Shown in pieces: positions 19,333 through 54,850 of a DNA stretch of 64,000 nt (within the stretch, counting starts at the first letter, position 1; each line of letters opens with the position of its first letter). Below the pieces are notes generated by a model. The model was not told where the DNA came from, did no database searches, and was given only the letters and a program-made list of their open reading frames with translations. The position numbers and the translations under genes are program-made. The stretch comes from Escherichia coli (GTDB taxonomy: Bacteria; Pseudomonadota; Gammaproteobacteria; Enterobacterales; Enterobacteriaceae), in the NCBI RefSeq assembly GCF_965641715.1, contig NZ_OZ282453.1. One strand, 5' to 3'.

Positions 19333-20469
19333 ATGGGACAGAGTAAAAAATTGAATAAACAACCGAGTTCGCTTTCACCGCTGGTGCAATTGGCGGGAAT
19401 TCGCAAATGCTTTGATGGTAAAGAGGTCATTCCCCAGCTGGATCTGACTATCAACAATGGCGAGTTCCTCACGCTGCTTGGCCCTTCTGGCTGCGGTAAA
19501 ACAACCGTTCTTCGCCTGATTGCAGGTCTGGAAACTGTTGATTCCGGACGCATCATGCTGGATAACGAGGACATCACCCACGTTCCGGCGGAAAACCGCT
19601 ATGTGAACACTGTTTTCCAAAGCTACGCACTTTTCCCCCACATGACCGTGTTCGAAAATGTGGCCTTTGGGTTGCGCATGCAAAAAACCCCCGCTGCTGA
19701 AATTACGCCCCGCGTGATGGAAGCCCTGCGGATGGTGCAGCTGGAAACCTTCGCTCAACGCAAACCGCATCAGCTCTCTGGTGGTCAACAGCAACGCGTC
19801 GCCATTGCTCGCGCGGTGGTTAACAAGCCTCGTCTGTTGTTGCTGGATGAGTCGCTCTCAGCGCTGGATTACAAACTGCGTAAGCAAATGCAGAACGAGC
19901 TGAAAGCGTTACAGCGTAAGCTTGGCATTACATTCGTCTTCGTGACTCACGATCAGGAAGAAGCACTCACCATGTCAGACAGGATTGTGGTGATGCGCGA
20001 TGGTCGCATTGAGCAAGACGGCACGCCGCGTGAAATCTACGAAGAGCCGAAAAACCTGTTTGTTGCCGGCTTCATTGGCGAAATCAATATGTTTAACGCC
20101 ACTGTCATCGAACGTCTCGACGAGCAGCGCGTACGCGCCAACGTTGAAGGCCGCGAATGTAATATCTACGTTAACTTCGCCGTTGAACCGGGGCAAAAAC
20201 TGCATGTTCTGCTGCGCCCGGAAGACTTACGTGTTGAAGAGATTAACGACGACAACCACGCTGAAGGGCTGATTGGTTACGTTCGCGAGCGTAACTACAA
20301 AGGCATGACGCTGGAGTCGGTTGTTGAACTGGAAAATGGCAAGATGGTGATGGTCAGCGAATTCTTCAATGAAGACGATCCTGACTTTGACCACTCTCTC
20401 GACCAAAAAATGGCCATTAATTGGGTAGAAAGCTGGGAGGTCGTACTGGCTGATGAAGAACACAAGTAA
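19333..20469 (+). CDS. potA: Spermidine/putrescine ABC transporter ATPase
   Basis: 378 aa; Walker [13 protein letters not shown] signature [14 protein letters not shown]. Confidence 0.95.
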
Positions 20470-21316
20470 GTTCCAGAATGTAGTGATTGTCACTATTGTC
20501 GGTTGGCTTGTGTTGTTTGTCTTTCTGCCCAACCTGATGATCATTGGCACCAGCTTTTTGACCCGCGACGACGCCAGTTTCGTCAAAATGGTCTTTACGC
20601 TGGATAACTACACGCGTCTGCTCGATCCGCTCTATTTTGAAGTGCTATTGCACTCGCTGAATATGGCGCTGATCGCCACCCTCGCCTGCCTGGTGCTGGG
20701 CTACCCGTTTGCCTGGTTTCTGGCGAAGCTGCCACACAAGGTGCGTCCGCTGCTGCTGTTTCTGCTGATTGTTCCCTTCTGGACCAACTCACTGATTCGC
20801 ATCTACGGGCTGAAAATTTTCCTCAGCACCAAAGGCTACCTCAACGAGTTTTTGCTCTGGCTGGGCGTTATCGACACACCAATTCGTATCATGTTCACGC
20901 CCAGTGCGGTGATTATCGGTCTGGTTTACATTCTGCTGCCGTTTATGGTGATGCCACTGTACTCCAGTATCGAAAAACTGGATAAGCCGTTGCTTGAGGC
21001 GGCGCGCGATCTCGGTGCCAGCAAGTTACAGACTTTTATCCGCATCATTATTCCACTGACGATGCCGGGGATTATTGCCGGATGTCTGCTGGTGATGCTG
21101 CCAGCGATGGGCCTGTTCTATGTGTCCGACCTGATGGGCGGTGCGAAAAACCTGCTGATCGGTAACGTCATCAAGGTCCAGTTCCTTAATATTCGTGACT
21201 GGCCGTTTGGTGCAGCTACCAGCATTACGCTGACTATCGTAATGGGCCTGATGTTGCTGGTTTACTGGCGCGCTTCTCGTTTGCTGAATAAGAAGGTGAG
21301 CGAATTAGATGATTAA
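20453..21316 (+). CDS. potB: Spermidine/putrescine ABC transporter permease
   Basis: 287-aa ORF with multiple TM helices; overlaps potA end; prophage DNA begins within about 430 bp downstream. Confidence 0.9.
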
Positions 21317-21749
21317 TCCTTTATATTCAATGCATTAAGTTTGTTTTTGAGTGGTTTTGCCGTTTAAGGTAACGACGTTATAGATCCTATCAAAATCAAT
21401 CAATTCCATTCTGGTTTTGGAGAAAGATTTTTCGAGAGCTTCGGTCTTTAACTAAAACTGATTGCGTATAATCCCAATACCCCTCCCCGACTATCTGAAT
21501 GGTCGGGGAGGCACTTCAAGCACAAAATATCATCCCTGCGCCGTTGATTACTCTGCAGGTGAAGTCGGCCACTCAATATCAGGTGCAGTTGATGTATCAA
21601 CACGGTTCAGCAACACCCGATACTTTTTCCAGGTTGTTACCAGACTCACATTCGTTCATTAATATGTCCTGTGATTTGCGTGCGGTGAGGTAGCCTTTTC
21701 CCAACCTCACCATCATCCGGCAATTTGTATTTATCACAAACGGCCTGTA

Positions 21750-24152
21750 TCAGTTGTCTGTTGCACCAACCATACCCGCAAATTTGAGCCATTGTCCTGA
21801 TGGACTTCTGTTACCGCGGTAGTGATAAACAAGGATTGCATTTGTTACTCCACCATAGTCAGCTTTATGTGATGTGGTTAAGCGAATTGTATAATCACCA
21901 TCGGGCAGGTTAAAAACTTCAATTACAGTCCCTGCTAATTCAACCGCTCCAAACCCCGTTATATTGTTGATGCTGCCCGCATTGAATCCCATCATATCGC
22001 CAAAACCAATCCAGTACTTTTTGCTGAACGCACCATTTGACCTCAGGTGGTTAATAAATGTGGACATACTCATGCCCATTTCGCCGCCAGTTATGGCTGA
22101 TGTACGTACCGAAATACTTGGCAGAGCACTACTCTTCACATAAGAGCTCAGAAGATTTATGACTTCTGTTTTCGTATAAGCATTAACGTTAGCCGCAGTC
22201 AACGTTATATCCGCAGTGCCATCAAACTTCACACCAGCAATTTCCCTTGCAGTCTGCAATTTCGTGGCACTGGCTGCGTTACCCGTTGTATCCTGATTGC
22301 CTGCCGCATTCACCCCCGGGATCAAATCTTTTACTGTATAAATCTGCGCCCAGTCCGACTCAAACCCATACTCATCCCGTGAGGAACGATAAAACAGCCC
22401 ACCATTTTTATAATTGGCCCTGATTTGCAACGTCCGGCAACTTCCACCCCCTGTATAGAAGTTTGCAACAATATAGCTGCTGCCTGTCCGGGTGACATTG
22501 TATGCACCAGATTTGGCATTCCACGGAACGCCTCCCTCTGACTCTGCGTGCACACCGGACGATCCAAGAGCAAAAGCAGAGACATCTGCAGCGGACAGCC
22601 TGATGTCTGATTTCAATGCCTTACCATTCACCTTACGACCAGATGGAACCCGGTCATTTGCATTATCATTCACCGCTTTCACCGCCATTGGTGTTGCCGC
22701 CAGCGATTCACTGTCACTGTCCGTGGCACTGCTGAGCTGTACCACCCCCTTTCTCGTCGTGCTCGCATCCTCTAGCGCCACGGCAGATGCAATATCCTCT
22801 GCCCGTTTTGCTGCTGTCTCGGCACGCGTTGCTGCAGATTCCGACGTACTTTTGCTCTGAGCTGCCGCTGTCGCACTACCAGCTGCCTCTGTCGCCTTCG
22901 TGGATGCCGTCGTGGCACTGACCTTCGCCTCTGACGCCTGTCTTACCGCCTCATCTTTTGAAGCAGACGCCGATGATGCTGATGACGCCGCCGAACTGGC
23001 GGACGATGCGGCTGCCGTTTCTGAGGCTCCTGCGCGGGTTTCCGACGCTTTCGCATTCGTCTCAGATGTCTTCGCTGCGGAAGCAGAACTCGCAGCTGCA
23101 GTGGCCTGTTCAGTGGCTTCGCCAGCCTTCGTTGTGGCTGTTGAAGCGGACGATGCAGCGCTTTCTGCCGATTTTCCGGCGGCAGCGGCACTGGCTACAG
23201 CCTCCCCTGCCTTCACTGATGCCTCACGGGCCGATGATGCAGCCGCGGTTTCTGAGCCTGCCGCAGCTGAGGCACTCTGTCCCGCTGCCGTTTCAGAAGA
23301 CCTGGCGTTCGTCTCGGACGTTTTTGCCGCTTTCGCGGAATTGCCTGCCGCTGTTGCCGAGGAAGCTGCGCTACTGGCGCTCGAGGATGCGTTCGTTTCT
23401 GATGATTTTGCCGCCTCTTTTGAAGCCGCCGCATCCCGGGCTGAGGTGGCAGCTTCTGACGCTTTCGTAGTCGCGGTGGATGCAGAAGTGGCTGCTGATT
23501 GTTGTGACGCTGCCGCATTCGTTTCTGACGTTTTCGCGGCACTGGCACTGGTAGCTGCCGCGCTTTTTGAGGACTCTGCAGCGGCAGCACTTTTTGATGC
23601 TTCAGTGGCCTTTGTTGATGCCGTTCCTGCGCTGGAAGTCGCTGACTGAGCCGACGACGCGGCCTGTCCGGCTGACGTGCTGGCTGCGCGTGCTGAGTCC
23701 GCAGCATCAGTCGCATGGGTTGCCGCCTCACGGGCTGATGTGCTGGCATCACTGGCTGACTTCTTCGCGGCTGCCGTGTTCTGTGCCACCACGGACGCGT
23801 TACGCGCCACCTCTTCCACCATCAGCTCAAAACGGCGCAGTGCCTCCGGACGGGCATCATCCTCCGTCATGGCACCGAGAAAATCATTCAGCGTACCGGG
23901 TCGGGAATCTTCATACACGGTGATGGTCCCGGCATGTGACGGCGGGAATCCTTCCACCAACAGAATAACGCTGTACTGACCGTACTCAACGTCCATGCTG
24001 TAACGCCCGGCTTCATCCGGATTTTCTGAGGCCAGCGTGTTCACCACCACCGTGGTACTGTTACGTTTTGCTTTCAGCTGGATTGTGCAGTTCTGTACCG
24101 GTTTTCCTGTGCCGTCTTTCAGTACACCTGAAATCTTTACTGCCATATTCAC
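21750..24152 (-). CDS. Phage tail fibre protein with Ala/Ser-rich repetitive shaft
   Basis: 800 aa; N-terminus MNMAVKISGVLKDGTGKPVQNCTIQLKA; long low-complexity repeat region; follows lom as the lambda side tail fibre does. Confidence 0.8.
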   Translation of the reverse strand: MNMAVKISGVLKDGTGKPVQNCTIQLKAKRNSTTVVVNTLASENPDEAGRYSMDVEYGQYSVILLVEGFPPSHAGTITVYEDSRPGTLNDFLGAMTEDDARPEALRRFELMVEEVARNASVVAQNTAAAKKSASDASTSAREAATHATDAADSARAASTSAGQAASSAQSATSSAGTASTKATEASKSAAAAESSKSAAATSASAAKTSETNAAASQQSAATSASTATTKASEAATSARDAAASKEAAKSSETNASSSASSAASSATAAGNSAKAAKTSETNARSSETAAGQSASAAAGSETAAASSAREASVKAGEAVASAAAAGKSAESAASSASTATTKAGEATEQATAAASSASAAKTSETNAKASETRAGASETAAASSASSAASSASSASASKDEAVRQASEAKVSATTASTKATEAAGSATAAAQSKSTSESAATRAETAAKRAEDIASAVALEDASTTRKGVVQLSSATDSDSESLAATPMAVKAVNDNANDRVPSGRKVNGKALKSDIRLSAADVSAFALGSSGVHAESEGGVPWNAKSGAYNVTRTGSSYIVANFYTGGGSCRTLQIRANYKNGGLFYRSSRDEYGFESDWAQIYTVKDLIPGVNAAGNQDTTGNAASATKLQTAREIAGVKFDGTADITLTAANVNAYTKTEVINLLSSYVKSSALPSISVRTSAITGGEMGMSMSTFINHLRSNGAFSKKYWIGFGDMMGFNAGSINNITGFGAVELAGTVIEVFNLPDGDYTIRLTTSHKADYGGVTNAILVYHYRGNRSPSGQWLKFAGMVGATDN
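22895..23825 (-). repeat. Imperfect tandem coding repeats inside the tail fibre gene (peptide units containing KTSETNA / SSASSA)
   Basis: KTSETNA and KSSETNA units recur at least four times in the translation; many long antisense ORFs in this interval are a by-product. Confidence 0.6.
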
Positions 24153-24210: not shown

Positions 24211-24810
24211 TCAGAATTTATAACCGACACCCACGATGAAACCGTCAGTGCGCCAGTCACCACTGCCGGAGCCTTCATAAGCGACATCAATGGCCACGGA
24301 TTCGGTCGGGTTAAACTGCACGCCAGCCCCCCACGCCAGAGACGTGTTGCTGTGGCGACCGTCATCACTTCCGGTCAGCACGTCGTGCGTTTTCCCCTTG
24401 TTATCAGTTACGCGGAGATAATCCCCGGAAAAAGTCGACACACGGCTGTAAGCCACACCCGCCATCGCATACGCGCTGAACCATTCATTCACGCGCACAG
24501 ACGGCCCCGCCATCACGCTGAACCAGCGGTTACGCACGGAATCTTCATGCCAGCGGGTATCGCTGTAACGGGTCAGCTGGCGATTCTTGTCTCCTGCATA
24601 GCTGAACGACGTCACCATCCCCAGTGTGTCCGTAAACTCATAACGGTATTTCACGTTAATCCCGTTCAGATCATCGCTGCCGGGGACGTTCGTCGAGGCA
24701 TGAAGATAGCCCGCGCTCAGCGTGGACTGATGTTCAGACGCCCATGCAGGCGCACAGGATGCGGCCAGACAAATGGCTGCGGACAAAATGGCGGCATAAA
24801 GTTTACGCAT
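24211..24810 (-). CDS. lom: Lom-like outer-membrane beta-barrel protein
   Basis: 199 aa; signal peptide MRKLYAAILSAAICLAASCAPAWA; C-terminal aromatic residue; position between J and tail fibre. Confidence 0.85.
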   Translation of the reverse strand: MRKLYAAILSAAICLAASCAPAWASEHQSTLSAGYLHASTNVPGSDDLNGINVKYRYEFTDTLGMVTSFSYAGDKNRQLTRYSDTRWHEDSVRNRWFSVMAGPSVRVNEWFSAYAMAGVAYSRVSTFSGDYLRVTDNKGKTHDVLTGSDDGRHSNTSLAWGAGVQFNPTESVAIDVAYEGSGSGDWRTDGFIVGVGYKF

Positions 24811-40458: not shown

Positions 40459-41195
40459 TTAAAGCGAGCGGATGCCCACGCTGACCAGATGTTCAGACAG
40501 ATCCGGCTCCGGTTCACCACCATTGACCAGCATCCGGCTCATTGCTGTAAACATCGCAACAGGGCCGTCGATTTTGGCTTCCAGCGTGGATTTATTCGGG
40601 AAGATATTGTCGTTTTTGTCCGGTTTTACCGTAACGTTAGACATCATCCAGTTCATGACCGGATGATTGCTGTGATGGAAACGCCCGGCATAGACCAGTG
40701 ATTCCGTTTCCTTCATGGCCTCTGACAGATTGCGAACCGTCTGCGGAACCTCCACCAGCGGTATCCCTTCTTCAGCCAGTGCCAGGCTGAACTGCATCGC
40801 GCTCCACGGGTCAAATCCCAGCTCCCTGAGGTTTTCACCACCAATCCATTCCAGTAAGTCACTTTTTATCTGAGCATGATCGATAACATCACCATCCGTC
40901 AGAATCAGCTTATCCATCTCCGCCCACTTCCGGTAAAGTTCTGCCTGCTGCCGCGAGCATCGTTCCAGCCGTCCTTCCGGAAGCCAGAATTTAAAATCGG
41001 CATGAACATGCCCGTTATCCGTTCGCCAGAGTTTTGCCGCCGCACAGATATCAATCTTATGAGCAAGGTCAACGCCGACCCACATGGGATACGTTTTCAG
41101 CTCATGTCGTGGGGCAATGTATTCGCACTTCTCCCACTTAATCATGTCCATCCAGGCAGACTCTGCTGTTACCCACACATTCATGTGTTTTGTGA
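40459..41195 (-). pseudogene. Prophage terminase large subunit, C-terminal fragment, separated from its N-terminal part by the satellite insertion
   Basis: 241-aa ORF MNVWVTAESAWMDMIKWEKC... aligns residue-for-residue with the middle of the satellite TerL (NIWCQGATPWMGNGAWAEC...). Confidence 0.8.
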
Positions 41196-41270
41196 GAATA
41201 TTTCAAGTTTTTTAAAATCACCTGTATATCAATCATTTAAAATGAAAAAACAGTCTTTATAAATCATCGA

Positions 41271-41292
41271 GCAATACACAGCGCAATACACG
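41271..41292. repeat. Tandem GCAATACACAG / CGCAATACACG motif near the satellite left end; candidate integrase arm site
   Basis: Same motif occurs as a tandem pair at 56094-56116 beside the int start. Confidence 0.45.
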
Positions 41293-41479
41293 TATCTGTA
41301 TTGTTTTAATGCTGATACACACCGTTTTTTGATACAGTGATTCGACCTACCATCGCGAAGCATTTTTTATTTCTTGTGTGTAACAATCTGACGAGGTGAG
41401 CACTCAAAGAGATAAGAGGCAGTAGAAATTTCGATCCCCCCCCTGAATGCAATTTTTCGTATATATATATACAAAACAG

Positions 41480-41636
41480 TGCGGGTTATGCGGGTTAGCG
41501 GGTTATCTTCGCGTGCTAAGTATTTTTTACTCTTTAATATCAATACGTTAAAAAACAACGTATCTAAATATCAGCCAGAATGTAACCCGCAAGACATTCA
41601 AAATAACCCGCAAACACCACTCAAATAACCCGCAAA
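41480..41636. repeat. Iteron cluster B: three direct TGCGGGTTAT-like copies and three inverted ATAACCCGCAA copies around an AT-rich spacer
   Basis: Direct copies at 41480-41508; inverted at 41582-41591, 41603-41613, 41626-41636; same consensus as cluster A. Confidence 0.6.
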
Positions 41637-41714
41637 AACATCCCTGAAAGTGGGTGCCGATAATACTGAAAATTTATTCCATTAAATGAGCATTGTCCTC
41701 TCTCATCCATTCCG

Positions 41715-43376
41715 TTACACACCATCAAACGTCGCAAGCCGCTCTTTGTGGCTGTCGCTCATATCGAATGCAAATTCCTCATGCTCTGCCTGGAATGTGC
41801 CAAACGCCATCAGCGCCGCAACGCTCGGGTCTATCTTGTTGGATGATTTTTTCTTGTTCGGCTTGATATTGGCGTTCGCGTCACTCTGCATCACAACATT
41901 ACTCATTGACCAGGCCAGCACCGGATCACCACGATGCACAATCACCTTCCGGTTAACAAAAACTTCGAACGATTTCGCCGCCGGACTGAAACGAAGGTAC
42001 GTTTGCGGGAACGGCTCCACCTCAAATCCCGCCCCCTGTAGCTGTGTTCTCAGGTGAGTGGCGTTCCATGTATCGAAGCCCACCAGCCTGATACTGAAAT
42101 TCTCTGCATCCACCATGATGTCATCACGGATACGGTCATAATCAATGCAGTCACCCGGTGTTGTGCGTATCCAGCCCGCCTTTACCCACTGGCGATAAAT
42201 GGCGCGGTTTTTATTGGCGGGGTTCTGTAACTGAAATTCCGGCAGATAGTGACGGGAAACCAGCATAATCTTTTTACCGACCGGAAAGGCATAGCACACG
42301 CTGGAAATATCGCTGGTTGATGATAAGTCCAGCCCCACGTAGCACTCCTGCCCGTATAAATCCGCCTCCGCGAACGTTCCGGCGCACTCCGCCCATGCAC
42401 CGTTACCCATCCACGGCGTAGCCCCCTGACACCAGATATTGAATCGCTTGGTGAGCATTTCCACCCACTGCGACGGAATACCCCGCGCTTTCTGGATGGT
42501 TGAGGCCAGTTTTTCACGATCGACGGAAACATCGATATTGGGATTCGCCTTTATCCACATCGCCGGATCGTCAACCTCGCTTTCATCATCCAGCTCGTAA
42601 ATCAGTACGAACATGGATTCGTTCACCTCTTCACCATCCAGTATCTGGCAGCAATAGTCGTAGTGTTGTTTACAGGCTGAAACAACGTTGCTCCCCGATG
42701 TGGTGATGGCAAATAATAACCCCTCCGGACGCGCCCCCATTCCCAGTTCAAGCGCGGAATAAACCCCGTTGTCAGGGTGCAGGTGATATTCATCTACAAT
42801 GGCAAGACTCGGGTTTGTACCTTCAATGGTTGCCGCTTTTGCTGCCAGTGGCTTTAACAGGCTGTTGGTTTTCGGGTGTATCACCTTGTGTGCCTGAATA
42901 TTTACCCGCTTTCGTAACGGTCGGGATAAAAGGCACATCTGACGCGCATCATCAAACACGATCCGCGCCTGATCACGACTCACGGCGGCGGTGTAAATAT
43001 CCTGCTGCCCGTTTTCCATAACCAGAAACCAGTTAGCCAGGATAGCGGCGACCGTGGATTTGGCATTTTTTCGCGGTACTTCAATGAATGCGCTGGTGTA
43101 TTTGCGCCGTCCGGTGGCCTTAACCTTAAAGCCCAGGATGCACGCAAAGGCGAACTGCTGCCACGGCTCCAGCTCAATGGGGCTACCGCGCATTGCGCCT
43201 TTTACGTGCGGACACACCCTGGAAAAGGCAATAAACTGCTCCACGACCTCCGGATCGAACGTGTAAAGGGGGTTTTCAAGGTCAGAAAAATACCGTTTAA
43301 CGGCCTGTTTCAGTCGTTTACAGGCCGTAATTTTGCCGTTTTTTACGCCTTCTGCGTACTCATGCCAGGCGGTCAA
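41715..43376 (-). CDS. Terminase large subunit (satellite copy, intact)
   Basis: 553 aa; ATPase and nuclease regions; homologous to but diverged from the interrupted prophage TerL. Confidence 0.9.
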   Translation of the reverse strand: MTAWHEYAEGVKNGKITACKRLKQAVKRYFSDLENPLYTFDPEVVEQFIAFSRVCPHVKGAMRGSPIELEPWQQFAFACILGFKVKATGRRKYTSAFIEVPRKNAKSTVAAILANWFLVMENGQQDIYTAAVSRDQARIVFDDARQMCLLSRPLRKRVNIQAHKVIHPKTNSLLKPLAAKAATIEGTNPSLAIVDEYHLHPDNGVYSALELGMGARPEGLLFAITTSGSNVVSACKQHYDYCCQILDGEEVNESMFVLIYELDDESEVDDPAMWIKANPNIDVSVDREKLASTIQKARGIPSQWVEMLTKRFNIWCQGATPWMGNGAWAECAGTFAEADLYGQECYVGLDLSSTSDISSVCYAFPVGKKIMLVSRHYLPEFQLQNPANKNRAIYRQWVKAGWIRTTPGDCIDYDRIRDDIMVDAENFSIRLVGFDTWNATHLRTQLQGAGFEVEPFPQTYLRFSPAAKSFEVFVNRKVIVHRGDPVLAWSMSNVVMQSDANANIKPNKKKSSNKIDPSVAALMAFGTFQAEHEEFAFDMSDSHKERLATFDGV

Positions 43377-43716
43377 GCTCGTCCTCTTCCTCTGTTTCCG
43401 GTGGATTTCTGCGGCGACTTACCGGGTCAAAACCCAGCAAAGAAGCCATTTTGATCATTATTCTTTCAGCGTCAGCCTTTGCGCTCAGGGCGGGGTTTCT
43501 GCTCTCGCTGCCCTGACTGTTAACAATGCTGAACCCGCGCGTGGCAAGGTCTTCGACGGCTTTGCGGTATATGGAGTAGTTAACGCAATACAGCTCCAGA
43601 TTGCTCCAGTCGGCGGGGGTAAGGTCTTCCCGTCCGGAAAGCTGGCGCGATTTTTCCTTCCACTGCCTGACCGCGATTTCATCCAGGTAAGCGGGGGCTT
43701 TTGGTGGTCTTGCCAT
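43360..43716 (-). CDS. Terminase small subunit, P27-like (satellite copy)
   Basis: ORF 43360-43857; likely start MARPPKAPAYLDEIAVRQWKEK; homologous to prophage TerS at 57273-57755. Confidence 0.75.
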   Translation of the reverse strand: MARPPKAPAYLDEIAVRQWKEKSRQLSGREDLTPADWSNLELYCVNYSIYRKAVEDLATRGFSIVNSQGSESRNPALSAKADAERIMIKMASLLGFDPVSRRRNPPETEEEDELDRLA

Positions 43717-43814
43717 GTTCTTTTTTCGCCCAATTATTTTCAAAAAAATTCCCGTGCACAAAAATTTGAGGAGGCGGTCGGTGTCCGGCAGGGACGGTTT
43801 TGTCCTGAAAACCT

Positions 43815-43825
43815 CCCCCCCCCCC
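43815..43825. repeat. Homopolymeric C11 tract between satellite HNH and terS
   Basis: Counted directly: 11 consecutive C on the plus strand, about 100 bp upstream of the terS start. Confidence 0.6.
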
Positions 43826-43835
43826 TCTGACGGCC

Positions 43836-44021
43836 TCACCAGCGATTGCGAAAACATTCCATGACCTCGCGGTCACGGTCGGTTAATCGCTTCGCTGTGG
43901 TGCGTTCTGTGCGCCCTGTCCTGTTGGCTTTGTGCCCTGTCTCCTGTGTCTTCCATAAGTCACGCTGCCTTATCAGTCCACGTATCAGCCTGTTTTGCTC
44001 CTGTTCAGTCATCATCGCCAT
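43836..44021 (-). CDS. Small hypothetical ORF between HNH and terS
   Basis: About 61 aa MAMMTEQEQNRLIRGLIRQRDLW...; basic protein; may not be expressed. Confidence 0.25.
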   Translation of the reverse strand: MAMMTEQEQNRLIRGLIRQRDLWKTQETGHKANRTGRTERTTAKRLTDRDREVMECFRNRW

Positions 44022-44445
44022 ACATCCAGTCGTTACGGTGTGCCGCCCGTTCTTCCTGCTCGCGATACATACCCGCCTTACGGTTCGCTTTCGTGGCTGG
44101 ATCTTCCCGTGTTGTCTTACGGTTATGGCACGTCTGGCACAATGCCTGGTGGTTCCACTCAGGCCAGAAGAGAACATCACCGCCGCCATTGATGGGAATG
44201 ATGTGATCCACCACAAGAGCTGGCGTATAAATCCCCTTAGCCAGACAACGCACGCATAACGGATTTTTGCTCAGGTACAGGGCGCGGTATTTGTCCCACT
44301 GTCGGGAATACCCGCGCGCGCGGCGGTGTCCCCGTCTGGCATCCTCTGCACGCCATGCAGCCCGCCTGTGATCTTCGCACTTGCCGGACTTCACGCGCTT
44401 ATTACAGCCCGGCTCAGTGCATCGCCTTAATGGTTGCCACGGCAT
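44005..44445 (-). CDS. HNH endonuclease (packaging-associated, satellite copy)
   Basis: 146 aa; Cys-rich HNH core VDHIIPINGGGD...CQTCHNRKT; sits next to terS. Confidence 0.85.
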   Translation of the reverse strand: MPWQPLRRCTEPGCNKRVKSGKCEDHRRAAWRAEDARRGHRRARGYSRQWDKYRALYLSKNPLCVRCLAKGIYTPALVVDHIIPINGGGDVLFWPEWNHQALCQTCHNRKTTREDPATKANRKAGMYREQEERAAHRNDWMYGDDD

Positions 44446-44744
44446 CAGTACACCCCTACATCACGATAAACCGACCAGAGCGCAGAAATAGCCATAGGCA
44501 GTTCAGACTGCTCCACAGGTGAAACCGCTTCCCTGTTCTCGTACAGGAAAGCGATGTACATCAGGCAACCAACACGTATTGCCGGGGTAAATTCCAGCCC
44601 GTCTTCAAAACGTTTCCCGATATGCTTCTGGCAGGCTTCCAGCGCCGCATCGGTATACATTTTCAGAAGTTCGCCCTCACCTGAGAAGTCATCAAGGCGA
44701 AGATGTGCCCTGACTTCATCAGGTGTAATTTTTTCTTCACTCAT
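44445..44744 (-). CDS. gp6-like head-tail connector protein (satellite copy)
   Basis: ORF 44445-44825; likely start MSEEKITPDEVRAHLRLDDFSGEGELLKMYTDAALEA. Confidence 0.6.
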   Translation of the reverse strand: MSEEKITPDEVRAHLRLDDFSGEGELLKMYTDAALEACQKHIGKRFEDGLEFTPAIRVGCLMYIAFLYENREAVSPVEQSELPMAISALWSVYRDVGVY

Positions 44745-46041
44745 CTTTTTCACCTTTAATTTCCACCGTCTGCTTCCATGCCTGGCTGAACTCGTCACCA
44801 CCTTCACGCGGCGGCATCCCCTCACGTTCGCGGGCTTCGTTCGGATTCATGATCCCGTTCTTAATCCCTTTCTCATACGTGGCGTAACGCTCGGTTGGAG
44901 TAGCGCGCAGTAAATCGGCTGAATCAAACTCAACCAGATAACGGGTACCAGGTATGGGAGAAGCCACCAGCAAAGCGGCCTTAATTTGCTGTTCGAAGTT
45001 CGCCAGCCATGGGCGCATTGTCATGGTCAGAAACGCGCGGCTTGCCTCACTGAAATTGCTGTAGGTGCTGTTGCTGTATTCCTGAAGAAAAATCGGCGAC
45101 ACGTTGAACATCCGGGCGATGTCTTCAATGGAGAAGCGACGGGAGGCCAGCCATTCTGCATCCTGGTTACTCATCCCCAGTTGCTTGTAATCCATACCCC
45201 CTTCAAGGATTGGCGTTTTTCCGGCATTTTTCGCCCCCTTGTAGCGTTCCAGGGCGTCTAATGCCTGTTTACCTTTCACGCCGTCCAGCCATTCGCCTGA
45301 CGTGATAATCCCTGCCGCCATCATGCCATCTTTCATAATGCTGGCTCCGTGACGCTGTTGAGCAAGGCCAAGCCCCAGCGCCTCACGGCAAATCGTGACA
45401 GGGGAGCGCCCCAGAAAGCCATCATCCGAGGCATAGCGGAGATGCAGAACTTCTTCCTGCAAATACGTGCGCACCGTTCCTGTATAGGGTTCGGTGATGG
45501 TATAGCGGTATTTGTGTGCGCCAGTGCGTTCCGGTACAACACACCCCGGCGCATAAGGATGAAGTGATTTTGGCTGACCGTCCCGCCCCCACTCAATAAC
45601 CGCATAGGCGTTACCGTTCAGCAGGCAGTGACGCATCATTGTGCGTTTAAACTGGTAAGGTGTCTGGCACGAATTAGGCTGCTCATTCAGCAGAATATCG
45701 ACCGGGTGACTGTCCAGCCATTCCCGCGCCTCCCTGCCCTTGTCATTGCGTACCAGATACAGATAACACGGCATCGTGGCCACCGCCTCAGCGATGACAG
45801 AAACCGCGTTCATCACAGCAGGCAATGATTCAGCCGTCCCGGCAGAAACATATTCTCCGGATCCGGTATTCGGTACGCCGGACAGCGCCAGAAAATCATC
45901 AATGGACAGGTTACGCAGATCGCTTTTTTTACGACTAAAAGGCCACCACATATCACAACCCCGCCAGTTCAGCCCAGCGATGACGATTATTTCCTGTCGG
46001 GCGTAATTCAGGGTGCTGTGCAAACAACGAACGGTGGGCAA
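44737..46041 (-). CDS. Portal protein, HK97 family (satellite copy)
   Basis: 434-aa ORF; FSIEDIARMFNVSPIFL region; true start may be MWWPF near 45951. Confidence 0.85.
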   Translation of the reverse strand: MPTVRCLHSTLNYARQEIIVIAGLNWRGCDMWWPFSRKKSDLRNLSIDDFLALSGVPNTGSGEYVSAGTAESLPAVMNAVSVIAEAVATMPCYLYLVRNDKGREAREWLDSHPVDILLNEQPNSCQTPYQFKRTMMRHCLLNGNAYAVIEWGRDGQPKSLHPYAPGCVVPERTGAHKYRYTITEPYTGTVRTYLQEEVLHLRYASDDGFLGRSPVTICREALGLGLAQQRHGASIMKDGMMAAGIITSGEWLDGVKGKQALDALERYKGAKNAGKTPILEGGMDYKQLGMSNQDAEWLASRRFSIEDIARMFNVSPIFLQEYSNSTYSNFSEASRAFLTMTMRPWLANFEQQIKAALLVASPIPGTRYLVEFDSADLLRATPTERYATYEKGIKNGIMNPNEAREREGMPPREGGDEFSQAWKQTVEIKGEKDE

Positions 46042-46513
46042 TCTCCACGCCGGATTCGGGATAAGCAGGCATCGACGTTATCGTGATTTCACGGAGTTCT
46101 GCGGCGGTAACAGTGCGCAGATACGGTTTTTGCGCGATATTCCACTCTTCGCATAATGCGCGAAAGCCAAAGCTCATTCCTGTAATGTCGCCACGCTCCA
46201 CCAGCGTAAGCACATCTTTTCCAAGCTGGGTATCAGGCGGTGTCAGTTCAAAACGTAGCCCGGTGTTGTCCTCAGTCAGTACCAGTGTTCCGGATTTGGT
46301 GCGCCCCAGCAGTCGGGTATAGTCATGCTCATACAGGCAGCGCACATCATTACCCGCCGCCAGATAGTCAGCAAAAGCCCCCGGCGTGAACTGTTCGCGG
46401 AATTCGTCCCAGATAATTTCTGAAAGGCTGTTCCAGCGAACGGCATACCCCACCAGCTTTTTATTGCTGGCGGTCAGTTCAGATGTGCGGATTTCAAAAT
46501 CGGTGTTTTTCAT
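45953..46513 (-). CDS. Prohead protease, HK97 family (satellite copy)
   Basis: 186 aa; VGYAVRWNSLSE...FTPGAF motif region. Confidence 0.85.
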   Translation of the reverse strand: MKNTDFEIRTSELTASNKKLVGYAVRWNSLSEIIWDEFREQFTPGAFADYLAAGNDVRCLYEHDYTRLLGRTKSGTLVLTEDNTGLRFELTPPDTQLGKDVLTLVERGDITGMSFGFRALCEEWNIAQKPYLRTVTAAELREITITSMPAYPESGVEIAHRSLFAQHPELRPTGNNRHRWAELAGL

Positions 46514-46567
46514 CGGTGTACTCCATAAAGCTGAAAAAGGAGGCCGCAGCCTCCTCCTTACTCATGA

Positions 46568-47737
46568 CTAGCCAGCTTTCATTTCCAGAATTTTGATGGC
46601 GTTTGAATCCACCACACCACCGCCCAGATATTTATCCGTGTGGACCTTGTAGAATCCGGGCTCAGTAATGTTGTCCGGTCGGGTGCGAATCCCTGTTACA
46701 TGATCAACGATGAAATAACCACGACTGAAATCGCCAACCGCTAGCGGTGCTTTTCCTGCGCCGATGTCCGGCATGGACTCCAGGCAGAAAACAGGACGAC
46801 CAAGCAACATATCCGGCGCACCTTCTTTAAGGCTGTCGCGCCAGATATAATCGCCATTCTCATTTTTCAGCTTCTGTAGTGTCCCTGCCGTGCCCGAGTT
46901 CATCACCCAGACGGCATTTTTGCGGTATTTCGCTTTCAGCTTGTAGAGAATGTCGATCAGTTCGTCCGCTGTAATGGCGGTTCCACTTGCCGCTACCACT
47001 TTTTCAATGGTGCCAAAAGCGCGGGTTTTGTCACTGGTCGCCGCACGGGTGTAAGCCATGAAGCCTTTCGGCTTGCCGTTACCGTCGCCATTAACAAAAT
47101 CATCCTCTTCGGTGCTGGCGAACGTGTCGGCAATTTCGGAGGATAACCAGCCCAGAATATCCACCTCTGAAAAATCCAGGATTTCCTGCGTGGTTTTCGG
47201 GTAGGCGTAGATCGGATTCAGCTTGATGGTTACACGTTCAATTTTCGGGGTGTTGGTTTCACTACGTGCGCAGCCTTCTGTGCCTCGTCCTACAGTTGCG
47301 CCGCCAGTGGAAACCAGTTTCTGAAACTCATTTGATTTTGCGGTCTTCACGGTCGCGATCACGCGCATAACACTGTCATCCTGTAGCTGGCGCATGACTT
47401 CGCGATCAAGCTCAGGAATTACGGTATATCCGCCATCCCTGCCGCTGTCAGTGCTGGTGGACAGTGATCGCACATCTCCGGTTACGATGTAGTTACGCAA
47501 TTCATCAGATGATAATTTCTGGATGCCCGTTCCTGGCTTGCTGCGTTCTTCATCAGCCACAGACTCGAGGCGGTAAATTTCTGTGTCGAGGGAATCGGCT
47601 TTTGCACGCAGTTCATCAAACTGTTTGCCCTCGTCATCGTTCAGGCTGCGGTTTTCACTGTCGGCTTTTTCCAGCAGGGATCGCATCTGGTTTTTCAGGG
47701 CGGTTTTTTGCTGGCGGAGTTCGATTAATTTCTTCAT
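46568..47737 (-). CDS. Major capsid protein, HK97 family (satellite copy)
   Basis: 389 aa; coiled-coil delta domain; GDGNGKPKGF motif; diverged from prophage copy. Confidence 0.9.
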   Translation of the reverse strand: MKKLIELRQQKTALKNQMRSLLEKADSENRSLNDDEGKQFDELRAKADSLDTEIYRLESVADEERSKPGTGIQKLSSDELRNYIVTGDVRSLSTSTDSGRDGGYTVIPELDREVMRQLQDDSVMRVIATVKTAKSNEFQKLVSTGGATVGRGTEGCARSETNTPKIERVTIKLNPIYAYPKTTQEILDFSEVDILGWLSSEIADTFASTEEDDFVNGDGNGKPKGFMAYTRAATSDKTRAFGTIEKVVAASGTAITADELIDILYKLKAKYRKNAVWVMNSGTAGTLQKLKNENGDYIWRDSLKEGAPDMLLGRPVFCLESMPDIGAGKAPLAVGDFSRGYFIVDHVTGIRTRPDNITEPGFYKVHTDKYLGGGVVDSNAIKILEMKAG

Positions 47738-47973
47738 GAAGGTTTTCTCGTATTGGTTAAGATTCAGGACGTGAAACCAACACGGAGGGAGCGCCGCCCG
47801 ACACTCTCGGCATCTCGCAGATCAACCCGGCATCGCGCAGGGGGTCAGGCGGCATTGTGGCGGCTCACGTCTGAGTGCCACACGCCAACATATACATAAA
47901 AATCAGTATGTAAACATCAGCCAGAATCACCGAACAACCTGGAACAACCACGAACAAATAATTTACAAAACCT

Positions 47974-48000
47974 GAAAAAAAGACCTGGAGAAAATCCAGG
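47974..48000 (-). terminator. Rho-independent terminator separating the satellite replication block from its capsid operon
   Basis: Hairpin CCTGGA-gaaaa-TCCAGG followed on the minus strand by TCTTTTTTT; lies between the 82-aa ORF and the capsid gene. Confidence 0.5.
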
Positions 48001-48011
48001 CCTTTATCGCT

Positions 48012-48260
48012 TTATTGTTTCACTGGATCCCGCATTCTGCGTCTTATTTTCCACAGATATTCGATCATCGCTTCCACCTGCTCACGATTGGTTGCGAAAA
48101 TTTCCCCGGTCAGTGAGCTGCGCAGAAAATCATGATGATCCACAACAAACAACGCATCGGAAGAAAGCAGACGGCGATATTTTTTTGCTGTCGTGGTTTC
48201 CAGATCATCAAAACCATGAAACTTTTTATGTTGCTGGACTTCTTCAAATGTCACTGGCAT
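48012..48260 (-). CDS. Hypothetical small protein
   Basis: 82-aa ORF MPVTFEEVQQHKKFHGFDDLETT... Confidence 0.4.
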   Translation of the reverse strand: MPVTFEEVQQHKKFHGFDDLETTTAKKYRRLLSSDALFVVDHHDFLRSSLTGEIFATNREQVEAMIEYLWKIRRRMRDPVKQ

Positions 48261-48793
48261 GTATCCCCCTTTGCCGCCCGGCGCTGGCGCTTGTGCTTCT
48301 CATTCAGCGCCATCAGCCGCGTTTCTGCCTCCTGCTGTTCCTGTGGTGTCACTTCCCCACATGGCTGGCCTTTCAGGTCGTATCGTACCCCACCAGCAAC
48401 CAGGGCGCGGTAATAGCGCGGAGACTGCGCATAAGATGCCAGCGTCGCACGTAATGCCCCCGGCCCGAATGCCAGCCCCCTGACGGCGAGATCCTGCATC
48501 AGGTCGTCGAATATCCCCACCTTAAGCGGCTTCGGTGCTTCCCTGTTGAATAAGTCAGGCCACATCTCAGTGAGGCGGTTAACGCGCCTGCGGTTTTTGC
48601 GCTGGCGTTTGGTCATATGCCGCCACGGTGTCACCCCTGTGGGCTGCCCTTTGCGGCTCTGCTGTGCGTTCTGATTGCCGGGTATCACTTTATGCGCCGA
48701 TGTGGTTTTATCCCGCTCTTGCGCCGCCTGCGTCGTTTTCTGCGGCGTGCCGTAAATGCCTTTCGGTTTTCGGTTAATGGTCAGCTTTGTCAT
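48251..48793 (-). CDS. FinO/ProQ-domain RNA-binding protein (putative)
   Basis: 180 aa; PLKVGIFDDLMQDL...RATLASYAQSPRYYRALVAGGVRYDLKGQPCGEVT matches the ProQ/FinO N-domain pattern from memory. Confidence 0.55.
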   Translation of the reverse strand: MTKLTINRKPKGIYGTPQKTTQAAQERDKTTSAHKVIPGNQNAQQSRKGQPTGVTPWRHMTKRQRKNRRRVNRLTEMWPDLFNREAPKPLKVGIFDDLMQDLAVRGLAFGPGALRATLASYAQSPRYYRALVAGGVRYDLKGQPCGEVTPQEQQEAETRLMALNEKHKRQRRAAKGDTCQ

Positions 48794-48957
48794 GCCTTCC
48801 CCTGTAATTACTCTGTTCGCTGTTGTGAATTAAAACGGTATGTTATCCCCGTACAGGTCATCGTGCTGGCCTGTCTGTTGTTTTGCCCTGTTCAGTGCGT
48901 CAGTGGCCTGCCCCTGTTGGCCTTTTTTGCCGCCCGGTCGCGCCGTTCTCGCACTGA

Positions 48958-49254
48958 TTACGCTGTCTGCGATGACCTGCCAGCCCTGCCGCGTTTCGCC
49001 GTTCTGCCCTGTCCACTGCTTACCTGCATGTTACCCGCCACGCTCACCAGTTCGCCTTTGCGGTGTTTTGCCAGTGCGTCGGCCTGTCTGCCAAACGCCA
49101 GGACGGATAACCACATCGTCGCCGTTCCGTCATCTGCCTGGCTGCATGGCAGGGGAACCGCCATACTCGCCATCGCCATTTGTGTTCCCTTGCTGGTGGT
49201 CTTTAACTGCGGGTCAGCCACCAGCCGCCCGTAAGCCGCTATCTGTGCTGTCAT
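48958..49254 (-). CDS. SSB-like OB-fold protein (short)
   Basis: 98 aa; GRLVADPQLKTTSKGTQMAMASMAV...WLSVLAFGRQADALAKHRKGELVSVAGNMQ follows the SSB OB-fold pattern. Confidence 0.4.
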   Translation of the reverse strand: MTAQIAAYGRLVADPQLKTTSKGTQMAMASMAVPLPCSQADDGTATMWLSVLAFGRQADALAKHRKGELVSVAGNMQVSSGQGRTAKRGRAGRSSQTA

Positions 49255-49317
49255 GCTGTCTGCTCTCCGGTTTTAACGTTGATGGTTACGCTTGTTTACA
49301 CCCTTACGGTGAAATTC

Positions 49318-49442
49318 TGCGGGTTATAATCGCACTTTTGCGGGTTATAACTGCCGTTTTGCGGGTTACGTGCGGGTTATTGATTTCCTTTTTATTCATA
49401 CAGTTAATGCACTTATATACATGATAACCCGCATAACCCGCA
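49318..49442. repeat. Iteron cluster A (candidate satellite replication origin): four direct TGCGGGTTAT-like copies, an AT-rich spacer, two inverted copies
   Basis: Direct copies at 49318, 49339, 49359, 49371; inverted ATAACCCGCATAACCCGCAA at 49423-49442; immediately 3' of the primase gene. Confidence 0.65.
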
Positions 49443-49464
49443 ACTTTTCACCTCACACAGGGGG

Positions 49465-51588
49465 TTAATCTTCTGCCTCAGGCTGGAACATCAGCACGTA
49501 AAAAACATGCTGCTTCCCCCCAATTTTGCCGAGCGCCTTTTTCTTGTAACGGCGATCGTTACCCGCTTCCAGCATTCCGGCAGCACTCAACGCGCGGGCA
49601 AAGTGAGACGGATTAAATCCCTGTGCTATCTCACCCTCAAATACATGCGGGAACGTGTAAAAACGGAACTCGTCATCTTCGTTTCTGATACTCCCCTTTC
49701 TGTATCCGGCAAGTTCTTTAATCGATAAATCACGCTCGTCGGTATTGGGCCACGGAAGGTATCTGCTGAATCCGAACGACGCTAAAAAAGCTTCTGCCTG
49801 TTCAACCATCTGTTTAAATTCCCTGTTACCCGTGCCGAACTCCTTCACCCAGGCATTAAAATTATGCTGTATGGCATCGCGGCATTCCTGCTCATCCCAG
49901 CCAGTAACATGACCTGAAAGCACAAGCGCGGCCTCCAGTATGGCAAATCGCTCCCCCACACGGTGAACCTGTTCGCCGTAGCTCTCCGGTATCAGGTTGC
50001 GCCACCGCTCACGGCATGTCCTTACCGTGTCCTTTGCCTCCTGCTGGTGTTCTGCCAGCCATTTAACCCACTCACGACCCGCCGCCCCGTGATTTTCTGT
50101 CCAGGCATCCTTTAACGCGTCTGCGTGCGCCTTTCCGGTGCTGTATTCGTGAAATTGCGTGGCTTTTTCCATCGGAACGTTAAGCAGGCGGACAAGCTGC
50201 CCCGCTTTGACTTTTATCCCCTCCGTTTTGAGGAATGTCTCAACGTCCATTTCTCCGGTGCTGATTGCCACCGTGCGCCAGTGTTTGATCTCCCTGTTGC
50301 CGCCGTCCTTCGCCCCCTGTAATTTCCCCGAACCGTTAAACAGCGTATAGGCTGACGTGGACACCTCCCGCGCGTTTCCGGCCTGGCCTATTTCATCCAG
50401 GGGTAAAAGCCCGTCATTGTGTGCCTCTGCTTCGTTGGCGATACCTAACGCTGTGCCGTACCAGGTCAGCCGCTGCGCGTCCGGCTCTCCCCATAAACTT
50501 GATGCGATGTTCTGTGTGGTGGTTTTCCCTGCCGATGACTGTTCGAAAAGATGTACCCCGAAGCCGTCAGCGCCCACCAGCCCGATTAATGGTGCGGATA
50601 ACGATACCGCCACACCCAGCATCATGGACGGATTACCACCAGCCAGCCGCGCAACGGTATCGCGCCAGCCCTCCGCCGTTCCTGCCACGGAATAGCCATT
50701 AACAGCAGCCGTTTTTCCGGTAAACAGGACTGGCTTTTCGCAATCACCAATGACCGAACCGTCCGGCATGATGTACGCGCCAAAATGCCAGCCCGTTGTT
50801 GTGCTTAACTGCCATTCCTCATGGCTTCCGCTTAACTGCATCCAGTCAGCCAGGATAGCCCTGTATTTACCGTTGGTTGTTACGTTCAGTCCGTGGTCTT
50901 TCAGCAACCGCCAGCCGTCACGGTCGCCAATGCCACCGCACGGAACCGCCATTGTGATGACTTCATGGTTTGCTAATTTTTTCCAGCGCATCACGCGGTA
51001 ATGCTCTTTACCGATTGTCCCCGTTCCCAGTAGTTCAAGCGGGGAACATAACCACGTCTCAGGCCGGATAATTTCGCCTGACTGCTTATCCACTTTTGGC
51101 GTTACCCAGAAAACACCATCGGCGCGACTTTCAACGCGGGGCTTTAATTCATCATCGCCCTGGATTTCTGTGATTTTTTTCTTTAAGGGCAACACCAGAC
51201 TTTCCCCGCGCTCGTATTCGTCTTTGAGGCGAGGCAACTGGTCGGATAAATCCGCCGGGCTGATGTCAGTTATCCCCGCGTATTCGTATACGGTCTTCAC
51301 GCCAGCCACAGCCAGCAACGTGACGATCTGTGTAAGGCTACGTTCAGTGATGTGCCCTGCGCGGTAAACACGCACACACTGACGGCTATCATCAATAATT
51401 TGATAACCGGTAATATCTTTCAGGTGTTCATCTGACAGAACGACAGGCGGCACATTGTCGGCGGCAATATGCTTACCTGCCCATTCCTGCCACTCTTTCG
51501 CATGGCTCCACGCATCACTACCCGCAAAGATGATAACCTCCGTCATTTTGTCGGCTGGCTGGTGCTTTAAGTTTGGTGCGCGCTTCAT
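49465..51588 (-). CDS. Replication primase/helicase with P-loop NTPase
   Basis: 707 aa; Walker A-like SSAGKTT; largest non-structural gene; adjacent to iterons. Confidence 0.75.
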   Translation of the reverse strand: MKRAPNLKHQPADKMTEVIIFAGSDAWSHAKEWQEWAGKHIAADNVPPVVLSDEHLKDITGYQIIDDSRQCVRVYRAGHITERSLTQIVTLLAVAGVKTVYEYAGITDISPADLSDQLPRLKDEYERGESLVLPLKKKITEIQGDDELKPRVESRADGVFWVTPKVDKQSGEIIRPETWLCSPLELLGTGTIGKEHYRVMRWKKLANHEVITMAVPCGGIGDRDGWRLLKDHGLNVTTNGKYRAILADWMQLSGSHEEWQLSTTTGWHFGAYIMPDGSVIGDCEKPVLFTGKTAAVNGYSVAGTAEGWRDTVARLAGGNPSMMLGVAVSLSAPLIGLVGADGFGVHLFEQSSAGKTTTQNIASSLWGEPDAQRLTWYGTALGIANEAEAHNDGLLPLDEIGQAGNAREVSTSAYTLFNGSGKLQGAKDGGNREIKHWRTVAISTGEMDVETFLKTEGIKVKAGQLVRLLNVPMEKATQFHEYSTGKAHADALKDAWTENHGAAGREWVKWLAEHQQEAKDTVRTCRERWRNLIPESYGEQVHRVGERFAILEAALVLSGHVTGWDEQECRDAIQHNFNAWVKEFGTGNREFKQMVEQAEAFLASFGFSRYLPWPNTDERDLSIKELAGYRKGSIRNEDDEFRFYTFPHVFEGEIAQGFNPSHFARALSAAGMLEAGNDRRYKKKALGKIGGKQHVFYVLMFQPEAED

Positions 51589-51899
51589 TTTGCCTTTCCC
51601 CGTTCACGAATAATTTCACGTACTGCCTTAATGCGTTCCATTCCTGTAACGCGCATGATTCTGTCGATGTCGCTTAATTCTGCTGGTGGTGCTTTACTTA
51701 CCAAGGTGAACTCCCTGTCAAAGCGCATATGTGACGACACGCAGGGATGCGCATAACCTTCGCGGATATAGGTCACACGAAAATCATCGACGGTTTTGAT
51801 CGTTATCGTGCTGCCGTATTTATCCTGGAAAATATCGCCGGGGCGGATTTCAGGCCGAGCGGGGCCGCTGGCAGTAAAGCCAGAATTTTTCTTTTTCAT
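51585..51899 (-). CDS. Hypothetical protein
   Basis: 104-aa ORF directly upstream of and overlapping the primase start. Confidence 0.45.
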   Translation of the reverse strand: MKKKNSGFTASGPARPEIRPGDIFQDKYGSTITIKTVDDFRVTYIREGYAHPCVSSHMRFDREFTLVSKAPPAELSDIDRIMRVTGMERIKAVREIIRERGKAK

Positions 51900-51904
51900 G
51901 TTTT

Positions 51905-52153
51905 TTACTCCAGAGGCAGCTTTTTAGCGGCGAGCTCAATATCAGATGTCAGAGAAACCTGTGTATTTGCCAGGTCTAACAACAAAGAAATAAGAATTTC
52001 TTCTCTGCTATCGGATTTATCGGTGCTAAGGCTGTTCATCCACATATTGACGACTTCCCTGATTTTTTTCGCAGAGTGCAGGGCTTCAAATGCCAGGTCT
52101 TCAATATCATGTTTATTTCGCATAATCGCCCCCGCCATTTTCACAATCAGCAA
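51905..52153 (-). CDS. Hypothetical small protein
   Basis: 82-aa ORF. Confidence 0.35.
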   Translation of the reverse strand: MLIVKMAGAIMRNKHDIEDLAFEALHSAKKIREVVNMWMNSLSTDKSDSREEILISLLLDLANTQVSLTSDIELAAKKLPLE

Positions 52154-52358
52154 TCAGGATGGCTTTTGCCTCATTCAGCGCCATATCAGCACTAAATTGC
52201 ATAACAGCCAGTGAGTGAGGAACGAAAGCCCCGGCATATTCTGTTTCGCTGGTGGCGTGCTTATGCGCCTTGTCTGCGATAACAGAAATATCAATCAGCG
52301 CGTGCATCAGCGTTTTGATGGCTTCGGCGGCTGCGTCCGGACGGGTGTTATTGCACAT
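52113..52358 (-). CDS. Hypothetical small protein
   Basis: 81-aa ORF. Confidence 0.35.
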   Translation of the reverse strand: MCNNTRPDAAAEAIKTLMHALIDISVIADKAHKHATSETEYAGAFVPHSLAVMQFSADMALNEAKAILIADCENGGGDYAK

Positions 52359-52554
52359 GGCGCACCTCCTGACGAATACGGGCAGCGAATACCATCACGC
52401 AGCCAGCCGGGGATTGCTGGCGTGCTTCCTGTTCGCTAGTGGCCTCAATGGTAATCACACGCGGTTGTGCCGTGCTCAGGGCGATAAAACGCCAGATGTA
52501 TTTATTCAGGTTGTGCGAGTCCCGCCCTTGCGGGTGTGTGGTATGATTTAACAT
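52348..52554 (-). CDS. Small Icd-like protein (putative host cell division inhibitor family)
   Basis: ATG at 52554 with GAGGT ribosome-binding site 7 nt upstream; 68 aa ending ...SEQEARQQ...FAARIRQEVRHVQ; family assignment is from memory. Confidence 0.45.
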   Translation of the reverse strand: MLNHTTHPQGRDSHNLNKYIWRFIALSTAQPRVITIEATSEQEARQQSPAGCVMVFAARIRQEVRHVQ

Positions 52555-54822: not shown

Positions 54823-54850
54823 GTCGATTGTTTCATCATTTTCAAGTTCT

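Follow-up and report, generated by a model that had tools for sequence, protein, structure and literature searches.

Tail-side attachment junction of a lambda-like prophage in the potB 3' end of Escherichia coli

Known attachment systems and the potB locus

Phage lambda integrates between gal and bio by means of an Int-Xis-IHF (IHF, integration host factor) system, with a demonstrated 7-bp overlap, and the arm-type sites of its attachment site attP are laid out as P'1-P'3 and P1/P2. Beyond attP, relative to int, lies the sib/tI hairpin, a retroregulatory element that integration separates from int. Phage 21 and e14 integrate into the 3' end of icd and bring a substitute 3' end with them, and the gene product stays full length. 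Described here is a junction of the lambda type in a 64,000-nt stretch of E. coli DNA (assembly GCF_965641715.1, contig NZ_OZ282453.1; this whole stretch is called the window below), at the place where the transporter gene potB meets the tail genes of a prophage. There is very little doubt in our view that a lambda-like prophage with a lambda-type tyrosine integrase is inserted here in the 3' end of potB, where potB and potC overlap, and that window 21285 to about 21545 forms its tail-side junction; in lambda naming the junction is attR (B, O, P arm).

The likeness to lambda takes in an Int with arm-binding and tyrosine recombinase domains and an adjoining Xis, an attP of about 300 bp with three int-side and two distal arm-type sites, and the gene order tfa, att, int. 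In contrast to lambda, the core and the arm motif (TTTTGGAGA-like here) are different ones, the target is inside the potB/potC operon, and the core is of 14 bp with exchange probably confined to the 6-bp AAGGTG. As with phage 21 and e14 at icd, integration is at a 3' end with a phage-borne replacement end, although the substitute here amounts to only 5 codons and a stop, and the insertion also splits an operon.

The locus is an established one for lambdoid phages. potC is given as a lambdoid and Stx phage insertion site (PMC8065619, citing Steyert et al. 2012), and a 'prophage 5 (potC)' is named in O157:H7 (PMC10925052); the passages of published work searched name the locus without its core, whereas the present analysis maps core, exchange segment and arm sites. 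One phage-collection record is an Stx1a prophage with this very junction, and unlike the Stx prophages at potC the part of the present prophage that was seen holds no stx. The finding is confirmed, and of a kind already known, namely ordinary lambda-type site-specific recombination at a published insertion site.

Core, partner junction and strand exchange

The breakpoint can be read directly from an alignment to the prophage-free potB-potC region of K-12, which is identical to the window through ...CTGAATAAGAAGGTG (21298) and unrelated beyond. After this point K-12 reads GAACTCGAATGATCGG, containing the potB stop that overlaps the potC start, and the window reads AGCGAATTAGATGATTAA. When 5,426 complete E. 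coli genomes (the set behind all genome counts below) were searched with window 21230-21480, the full stretch was present next to potB in 963 of them; among the matches listed below this class the alignment takes in only query 1-69 (window 21230-21298), in thousands of prophage-free genomes, and one divergent arm type among the matches listed aligns over query 1-101. Because the alignments to K-12 and to the prophage-free genomes stop there, the phage/host boundary is placed at 21298/21299, 18 nt inside the potB open reading frame (ORF).

The potB ORF does end at 21316, as an initial annotation of this DNA had it (the stop TAA occupies 21314-21316, and PGAP calls the same ORF potB in ETEC1731, the closest complete genome), and its labelling there as a core gene needs amending, in that homology to K-12 and the prophage-free genomes ends at 21298 and the last six codons, stop included, are of phage origin. 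PotB terminates here in ...KKVSELDD-stop as against the native ...KKVELE-stop, and the sequence of 21299-21316 that encodes the new tail also stands directly after the core in the joined attP contigs introduced below. The core itself, TGAATAAGAAGGTG, is common to the empty host site and to both prophage ends and is single-copy within the 64-kb window; at the potC-side junction 13 of its 14 positions match in ETEC1731 and in a sister genome, and all 14 in vB_EcoS-640R1. The attachment site had been expected inside the 430-bp gap between potB and the tail fibre gene, and moving the core to 21285-21298, within potB and upstream of 21317-21750, is the only correction that the earlier reading needs.

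A joined attP is found in phage DNA. The query for it was built by joining the int-side arm of ETEC1731 to the window arm across the core, and a search of the GenBank phage collection with this reconstructed site gave no record with both arms contiguous, the best matches being prophages recorded together with flanking host DNA. IMG/VR, scanned for exact matches to the joined arrangement, gave four contigs (L011-L014), and in each of these the int 3' end is followed by some 150 bp of arm, CCACCTTATGAATAAGAAGGTG, AGCGAATTAGATGATTAATCC..., a window-type arm about 99% identical to that of the window, the stem-loop and the tfa 3' end. Since all four align end to end in that order, the DNA from 21299 to at least the tfa remnant is phage DNA that is contiguous with int when unintegrated.

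Both potC and a repeat of the core are missing from the window, and so the partner end is drawn from relatives. ETEC1731 is 99.4% identical across the junction and carries the same prophage from potB to potC; at the far end of that prophage xis and int lie just upstream of the potC-side junction, which reads ...CCACCTTA TGAATAAAAAGGTG GAACTCGAATG(potC), with gaactcgaATG running into potC. Its Int has PF09003 (the lambda arm-binding domain) and PF00589 (tyrosine recombinase), and its Xis, an excisionase of the Exc family and a lambda Xis analogue, has PF07825; an arm-binding integrase and an excisionase are thus seen beside the other junction. Extension past 64000 was by way of the sister draft assembly GCA_036953225.1, to one contig of which a composite exonuclease sequence matched exactly. 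Two loci of that contig overlap the window, one (L015) across 52274-64000 with 1 mismatch in 11,727 bp, the other (L027) across 61343-64000 with 100% identity over 2,658 bp. Onward from there the order is the early region, the exonuclease, xis, a 372-aa int (the same Int, with PF09003 and PF00589), two small cargo genes, core TGAATAAGAAGGTA, potC and potD. In window-equivalent positions int occupies about 74114-75232, the core occupies 76270-76283 and potC starts at 76292, with int and potC 1 kb apart in the sister genome. The partner site and integrase had been predicted past 64000, and in the sister assembly they are there, some 10-12 kb beyond; nor does potC come immediately after the window without a repeat of the junction, the arrangement that would have spoken against the prediction, since it follows the rest of the prophage and the repeat is present. 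The potC-side core of the sister genome (L027 14928-14952, window-equivalent about 76270-76294) has A for G at core position 14, which turns the Shine-Dalgarno-like AAGGTGG before potC into AAGGTAG.

This far end differs somewhat between relatives. Between int and the att arm lie the two cargo genes, a DUF2335 membrane protein gene and a 67-aa ORF, both on the other strand (L003 41970-42618 in ETEC1731; L027 13994-14642). Neither vB_EcoS-640R1 nor any of the four attP contigs has the pair, and int in them stops some 150 bp short of the core. On the host side, about 1.3 kb of the ymfA/ycfZ region, which separates potD from cobB, is present in ETEC1731 (L003 44864-46156) and missing from the sister genome (L027 16888-16893).

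The point of strand exchange can be approached through core position 8 (21292), which varies between genomes. The potC-side junctions divide into 777 genomes with A and 792 with G, and among 3,652 alignable 3' ends of potB, empty sites and potB-side junctions taken together, no more than 2 have A; potB-side junctions with the window-type arm never have A, and those with the 2011C-3911-type arm have 98 G against 1 A. On this distribution position 8 would be host-derived on the potB side and phage-derived on the potC side. Because it is host-type on the one side and phage-type on the other, we infer that the strands are exchanged to its right, within AAGGTG (21293-21298). In attB this segment is followed by G, 7 nt and then the potC ATG, and it resembles the Shine-Dalgarno sequence of the potC ribosome-binding site. 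The two exceptions to the pattern, NZ_CP080146.1 (PK8276) and NZ_AP045167.1 (JNEC-KY171), both with A, are one empty potB-potC site and one potB-side junction, and may be products of heteroduplex repair or of excision.

As for the 430-bp gap, which had been expected to contain the att site, one att arm is indeed in it, and the rest is non-att, made up of the stem-loop, a tfa remnant and a scar. Blocks of this integrase-distal arm are conserved in divergent arms (alignment A3). Repeated motifs distinct from the core are observed in both arms: the TTTTGGAGA-like motif has 2 copies in the window arm (21415-21437, 117-139 bp from the core) and 3 tandem copies in the int-side arm, 46-80 bp from the core. 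Allowing at most 1 mismatch, 50 kb of ETEC1731 DNA (L003) contain 6 motif matches, and 4 of these fall in the two arms and in the same orientation, with 2.06 matches expected; TTTTGGAGAA-G-TTTTT is invariant in arms diverged to 83% identity or much less. By their likeness to lambda P1/P2 and P'1-P'3 these are candidate arm-type sites to which Int may bind. Closer to the core AAAATCAA (21392-21399) is also invariant in divergent arms, and AATCAATCAATTC at 21394-21406, in the same conserved A/T block, matches the IHF consensus at 12 of 13 positions, and so the block is a candidate site for a bending protein.

Taken as a lambda-type reaction, recombination would have been between a phage attP of about 300 bp and the 14-bp host sequence TGAATAAGAAGGTG. 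The phage would bring its own short potB tail (SELDD-stop), by which PotB stays full length, and potC would retain its own start codon but move about 55 kb from potAB. AAGGTG would be regenerated at the other junction in most genomes, and AAGGTA in the sister genome. Excision would give an attP of the form ...CCACCTTATGAATAA(G/A)AAGGTGAGCGAATT... and a restored potB-potC junction, TGAATAAGAAGGTGGAACTCGAATG / ...GCTGAATAAGAAGGTGGAACTCGAATG....

Alternative readings and effects on the host operon

That the crossover took place somewhere in 21317-21750, with potB being intact core DNA to 21316, was the version of the initial annotation, and its chances are now practically nil. It has in its favour that the gap does contain att-arm DNA and that the prophage does begin here. 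However, homology to the empty site stops at 21298 and not at 21316, the sole sequence repeated at the other prophage end is 21285-21298, the joined attP contigs have 21299 onward contiguous with phage DNA, and 21317-21750 is not directly repeated beside potC, at the junctions of ETEC1731 and the sister genome; a comparison of all three, attB, attP and the junctions, already refutes a crossover in the gap. The preferred reading, a core within potB, has points that weigh against it in its turn. Only one of the two junctions is in the window, with the partner end known from the sister assembly and relatives. No clean pair of inverted core-type sites stands around AAGGTG, and the dyad that can be seen, CACCTTA/(G/A)AAGGTG, is centred on TGAATAA and would put the overlap further left, in conflict with the position-8 pattern; the 2011C-3911-type arm is identical to attB only up to GAAGG; and the strict IHF consensus WATCARNNNNTTR matches neither arm in a motif scan, which is again a difference from lambda. 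An overlap at TGAATAA was considered and rejected, since under it position 8 should be host-type on the potC side, where in fact 777 genomes have an A that is nearly absent from empty sites. Split terL and truncated tfa also mean that the prophage may be non-viable. It is then a question whether the junction is a fossil, part of a defective remnant that can no longer excise and in which arm motifs and stem-loop decay without present function. Interruption of terL by a 15-kb satellite-like element, reduction of tfa to 27 codons and the G-to-A change at core position 14 on the potC side of the sister genome are all in keeping with such decay, which we nonetheless hold to be quite improbable: int (in the sister genome and ETEC1731) and xis (in ETEC1731) are full-length ORFs with the expected Pfam domains, the arm is about 99% identical to that of the joined attP contigs, arm-type motif and stem-loop persist in arms that otherwise retain 83% identity or less, and precise excision of the satellite could restore terL.

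The stem-loop has to be weighed along with these readings. The GC hairpin that had been noticed at about 21480-21512 stands up to analysis: RNA of the + strand folds with -24.2 kcal/mol (z = -5.0, with 0 of 200 shuffles as stable) and that of the - strand gives z = -2.2, and so the + (int-sense) strand is the better folder, with 13 bp including a G.U pair. The structure is also in the attP contigs and in phage cdtI, and strain 08-00022, with an 83%-identical arm and a different chaperone gene adjacent, has a version of it in which the stem is longer and carries a double change, C-G to T-A. Neither strand has a U-run and 21200-21900 has no terminator-like site, so that it is not a canonical Rho-independent terminator; a promoter scan of the same interval gave nothing useful. 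Its most likely role is in forming the 3' end of transcripts that come in from the tail operon or from int, or in their processing. The more particular proposal, of a sib-like retroregulator that lies downstream of int past attP in the free phage, has read-through RNA from int processed and degraded there, and is parted from int upon integration, is a tentative one and the odds are against it. The order int, core, arm, stem-loop on one strand in attP, with the stem-loop about 185 nt past the core, the better fold of the int-sense strand and the survival of the structure with a double change beside another tail-fibre chaperone gene in 08-00022 would all suit it, and the position of a stable hairpin past attP relative to int is that of lambda sib/tI. 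Unlike sib/tI, there is no long interrupted duplex and no U-run here, and membership is not supported; an extended RNase III-type duplex is not predicted around the stem-loop. In phage cdtI, moreover, the stem-loop goes with the tfa 3' end next to cdtABC while the att arm is largely deleted, and a tail-fibre transcript 3' end or a protein-binding palindrome are alternative roles that are equally possible, the former being about as likely as the sib-like one.

The cdtI locus deserves a word of its own (L005, AB285204.1 about 23600-23900). There the stem-loop, a tfa remnant and a partly deleted att arm directly adjoin cdtABC. The arm copy reads ...CAGAAGGTGAGCGTATTAGATGATTAATCC...ATTCAAT joined to CTTCGGTCTTTAAC and is without arm-type sites, which suggests that the cdt toxin genes of this phage lie at an old att boundary.

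For the host, a potC-side junction of this type is found in at least 1,569 of the complete genomes (29%), and a phage-encoded potB end in at least 1,060, of which 963 have the present arm type and 98 the 2011C-3911 type. With the crossover at the ribosome-binding region of potC, and some 55 kb between potCD and the potA promoter, lysogeny might not be neutral for the host, although this seems unlikely to us. Scans of the potC-side phage arm for promoters and terminators gave nothing useful, with no promoter-like site facing potC. Were it so, the spermidine-preferential transporter would be silenced, or driven by phage read-out from the int end, in at least 29% of complete E. coli genomes, and polyamine uptake would be tied to prophage state, jointly with the conserved stem-loop as a sib-like element on the other arm. 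Expression of potCD once cut off from potAB is the sole question of some interest at this locus. The practical value is in correct annotation, in that the prophage boundary is 18 nt inside the annotated potB, and the 14-bp core together with the arm motifs provides an exact rule for delimiting prophages at potB/potC, Stx-converting ones included.

Neighbouring features and other observations

Around the junction the gene order is pepT (-), potA (19333-20469) and potB, followed by the minus-strand phage tail genes stf, lom (24211-24810) and J (24880-28377). A prophage-chromosome junction beside potB had been proposed, and the K-12 breakpoint, the shared core and the joined attP bear it out. Features of the junction are collected in the table.

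Features of the potB-side junction (window coordinates)
Feature	Position	Strand	Basis or remark
potB ORF, 287 aa	20453..21316	+	ORF list and K-12 alignment; host DNA to 21298, last 18 nt phage DNA
Common core TGAATAAGAAGGTG, 14 bp	21285..21298	+	K-12 attB, joined attP, potC-side junctions
AAGGTG, probable exchange segment	21293..21298	+	Core position 8 allele pattern
Phage-supplied potB 3' end, AGC GAA TTA GAT GAT TAA = SELDD-stop	21299..21316	+	K-12 has ELE-stop
Integrase-distal att arm, lambda P-arm analogue	21299..21440	+	Contiguous with int-side arm in L011-L014; outer limit approximate, inferred
Invariant block ATATTCAA	21323..21330	+	Same in three divergent arms, alignment A3
Conserved A/T-rich block AAAATCAATCAATT	21392..21405	+	Alignment A3; candidate bending-protein site
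Candidate Int arm-type site TTTTGGAGAAA	21415..21425	+	Recurs in int-side arm; invariant in divergent arms
Second, degenerate arm-type copy TTTTTCGAG	21429..21437	+	Directly after the first; TTTTT portion invariant in A3
G+C-rich stem-loop	21482..21511	.	Between att arm and tfa stop; arms 21482-21494 and 21499-21511
Lambda-type tfa 3' remnant, last 27 codons and stop	21548..21633	-	BLAST to lambda orf-194, alignment, translations; PGAP pseudogene in ETEC1731
Non-coding scar, 116 bp	21634..21749	.	Between stf stop and tfa remnant; weak hairpin 21684-21711
Side tail fibre (Stf-like) gene, 800 aa	21750..24152	-	PF08400, E = 1e-71; last intact prophage gene at this end

The tail fibre gene does end at 21750, as had been stated, with its stop at 21750-21752. 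What follows it is not a complete Tfa (an ORF of about 194 aa), for the match to lambda Tfa is limited to the last 27 codons, with six in-frame stops ahead of them; it would be a dead tfa 3' end left by exchange of a tail-fibre module. The hairpin of the scar is weak (z -1.6 to -2.2), five small ORFs in 21448-21792 have no Pfam family, and the whole arrangement is present in only 5 genomes. At the gathering threshold Rfam gives only tRNAs. Below it there is an IS009 match at 21548-21658 (-), with 46 bits against a gathering score of 117 (E = 2e-9); because it overlaps the conserved tfa 3' end, it probably reflects tfa sequence held in common and not an RNA gene.

Set beside the prophage of ETEC1731, this one is collinear apart from an insertion of 15.06 kb (41191-56245) that leaves terL in two pieces, C-terminal at 40459-41184 and N-terminal at 56246-57273. 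The insert has genes for an integrase (54851-56110), Bro-N, a DUF927 primase-like protein, ProQ/FinO, an HK97-type capsid, a protease, a portal, terS and terL, is without tail or lysis genes, and has an imperfect flanking repeat, TTTGTGA(G/A)AA. This is the gene set of a capsid-forming phage-inducible chromosomal island (cf-PICI), a phage satellite (bioRxiv 10.1101/2022.09.08.507074), and by gene content the insert is a cf-PICI-like satellite. The same integrase|terL junction occurs in 35 genomes, once within an Stx1d prophage, and terL is uninterrupted in about 900. A satellite that disables the packaging enzyme of its host prophage while tails are still made is worth a separate study.

Elsewhere in the prophage, two tRNA genes lie at 60862-61012 (-) in the late-regulatory region, where ETEC1731 has four. 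The immunity module (Cro-like, truncated CI-like and YdaT) is found joined to three different integrase/att modules in other genomes, namely potC, ompW and Rac-like (L021-L026), and because one immunity module is joined to three of these, the early region alone is no predictor of the insertion site. The Cro-like protein of the module is present in 29,819 blocks of the contig collection.

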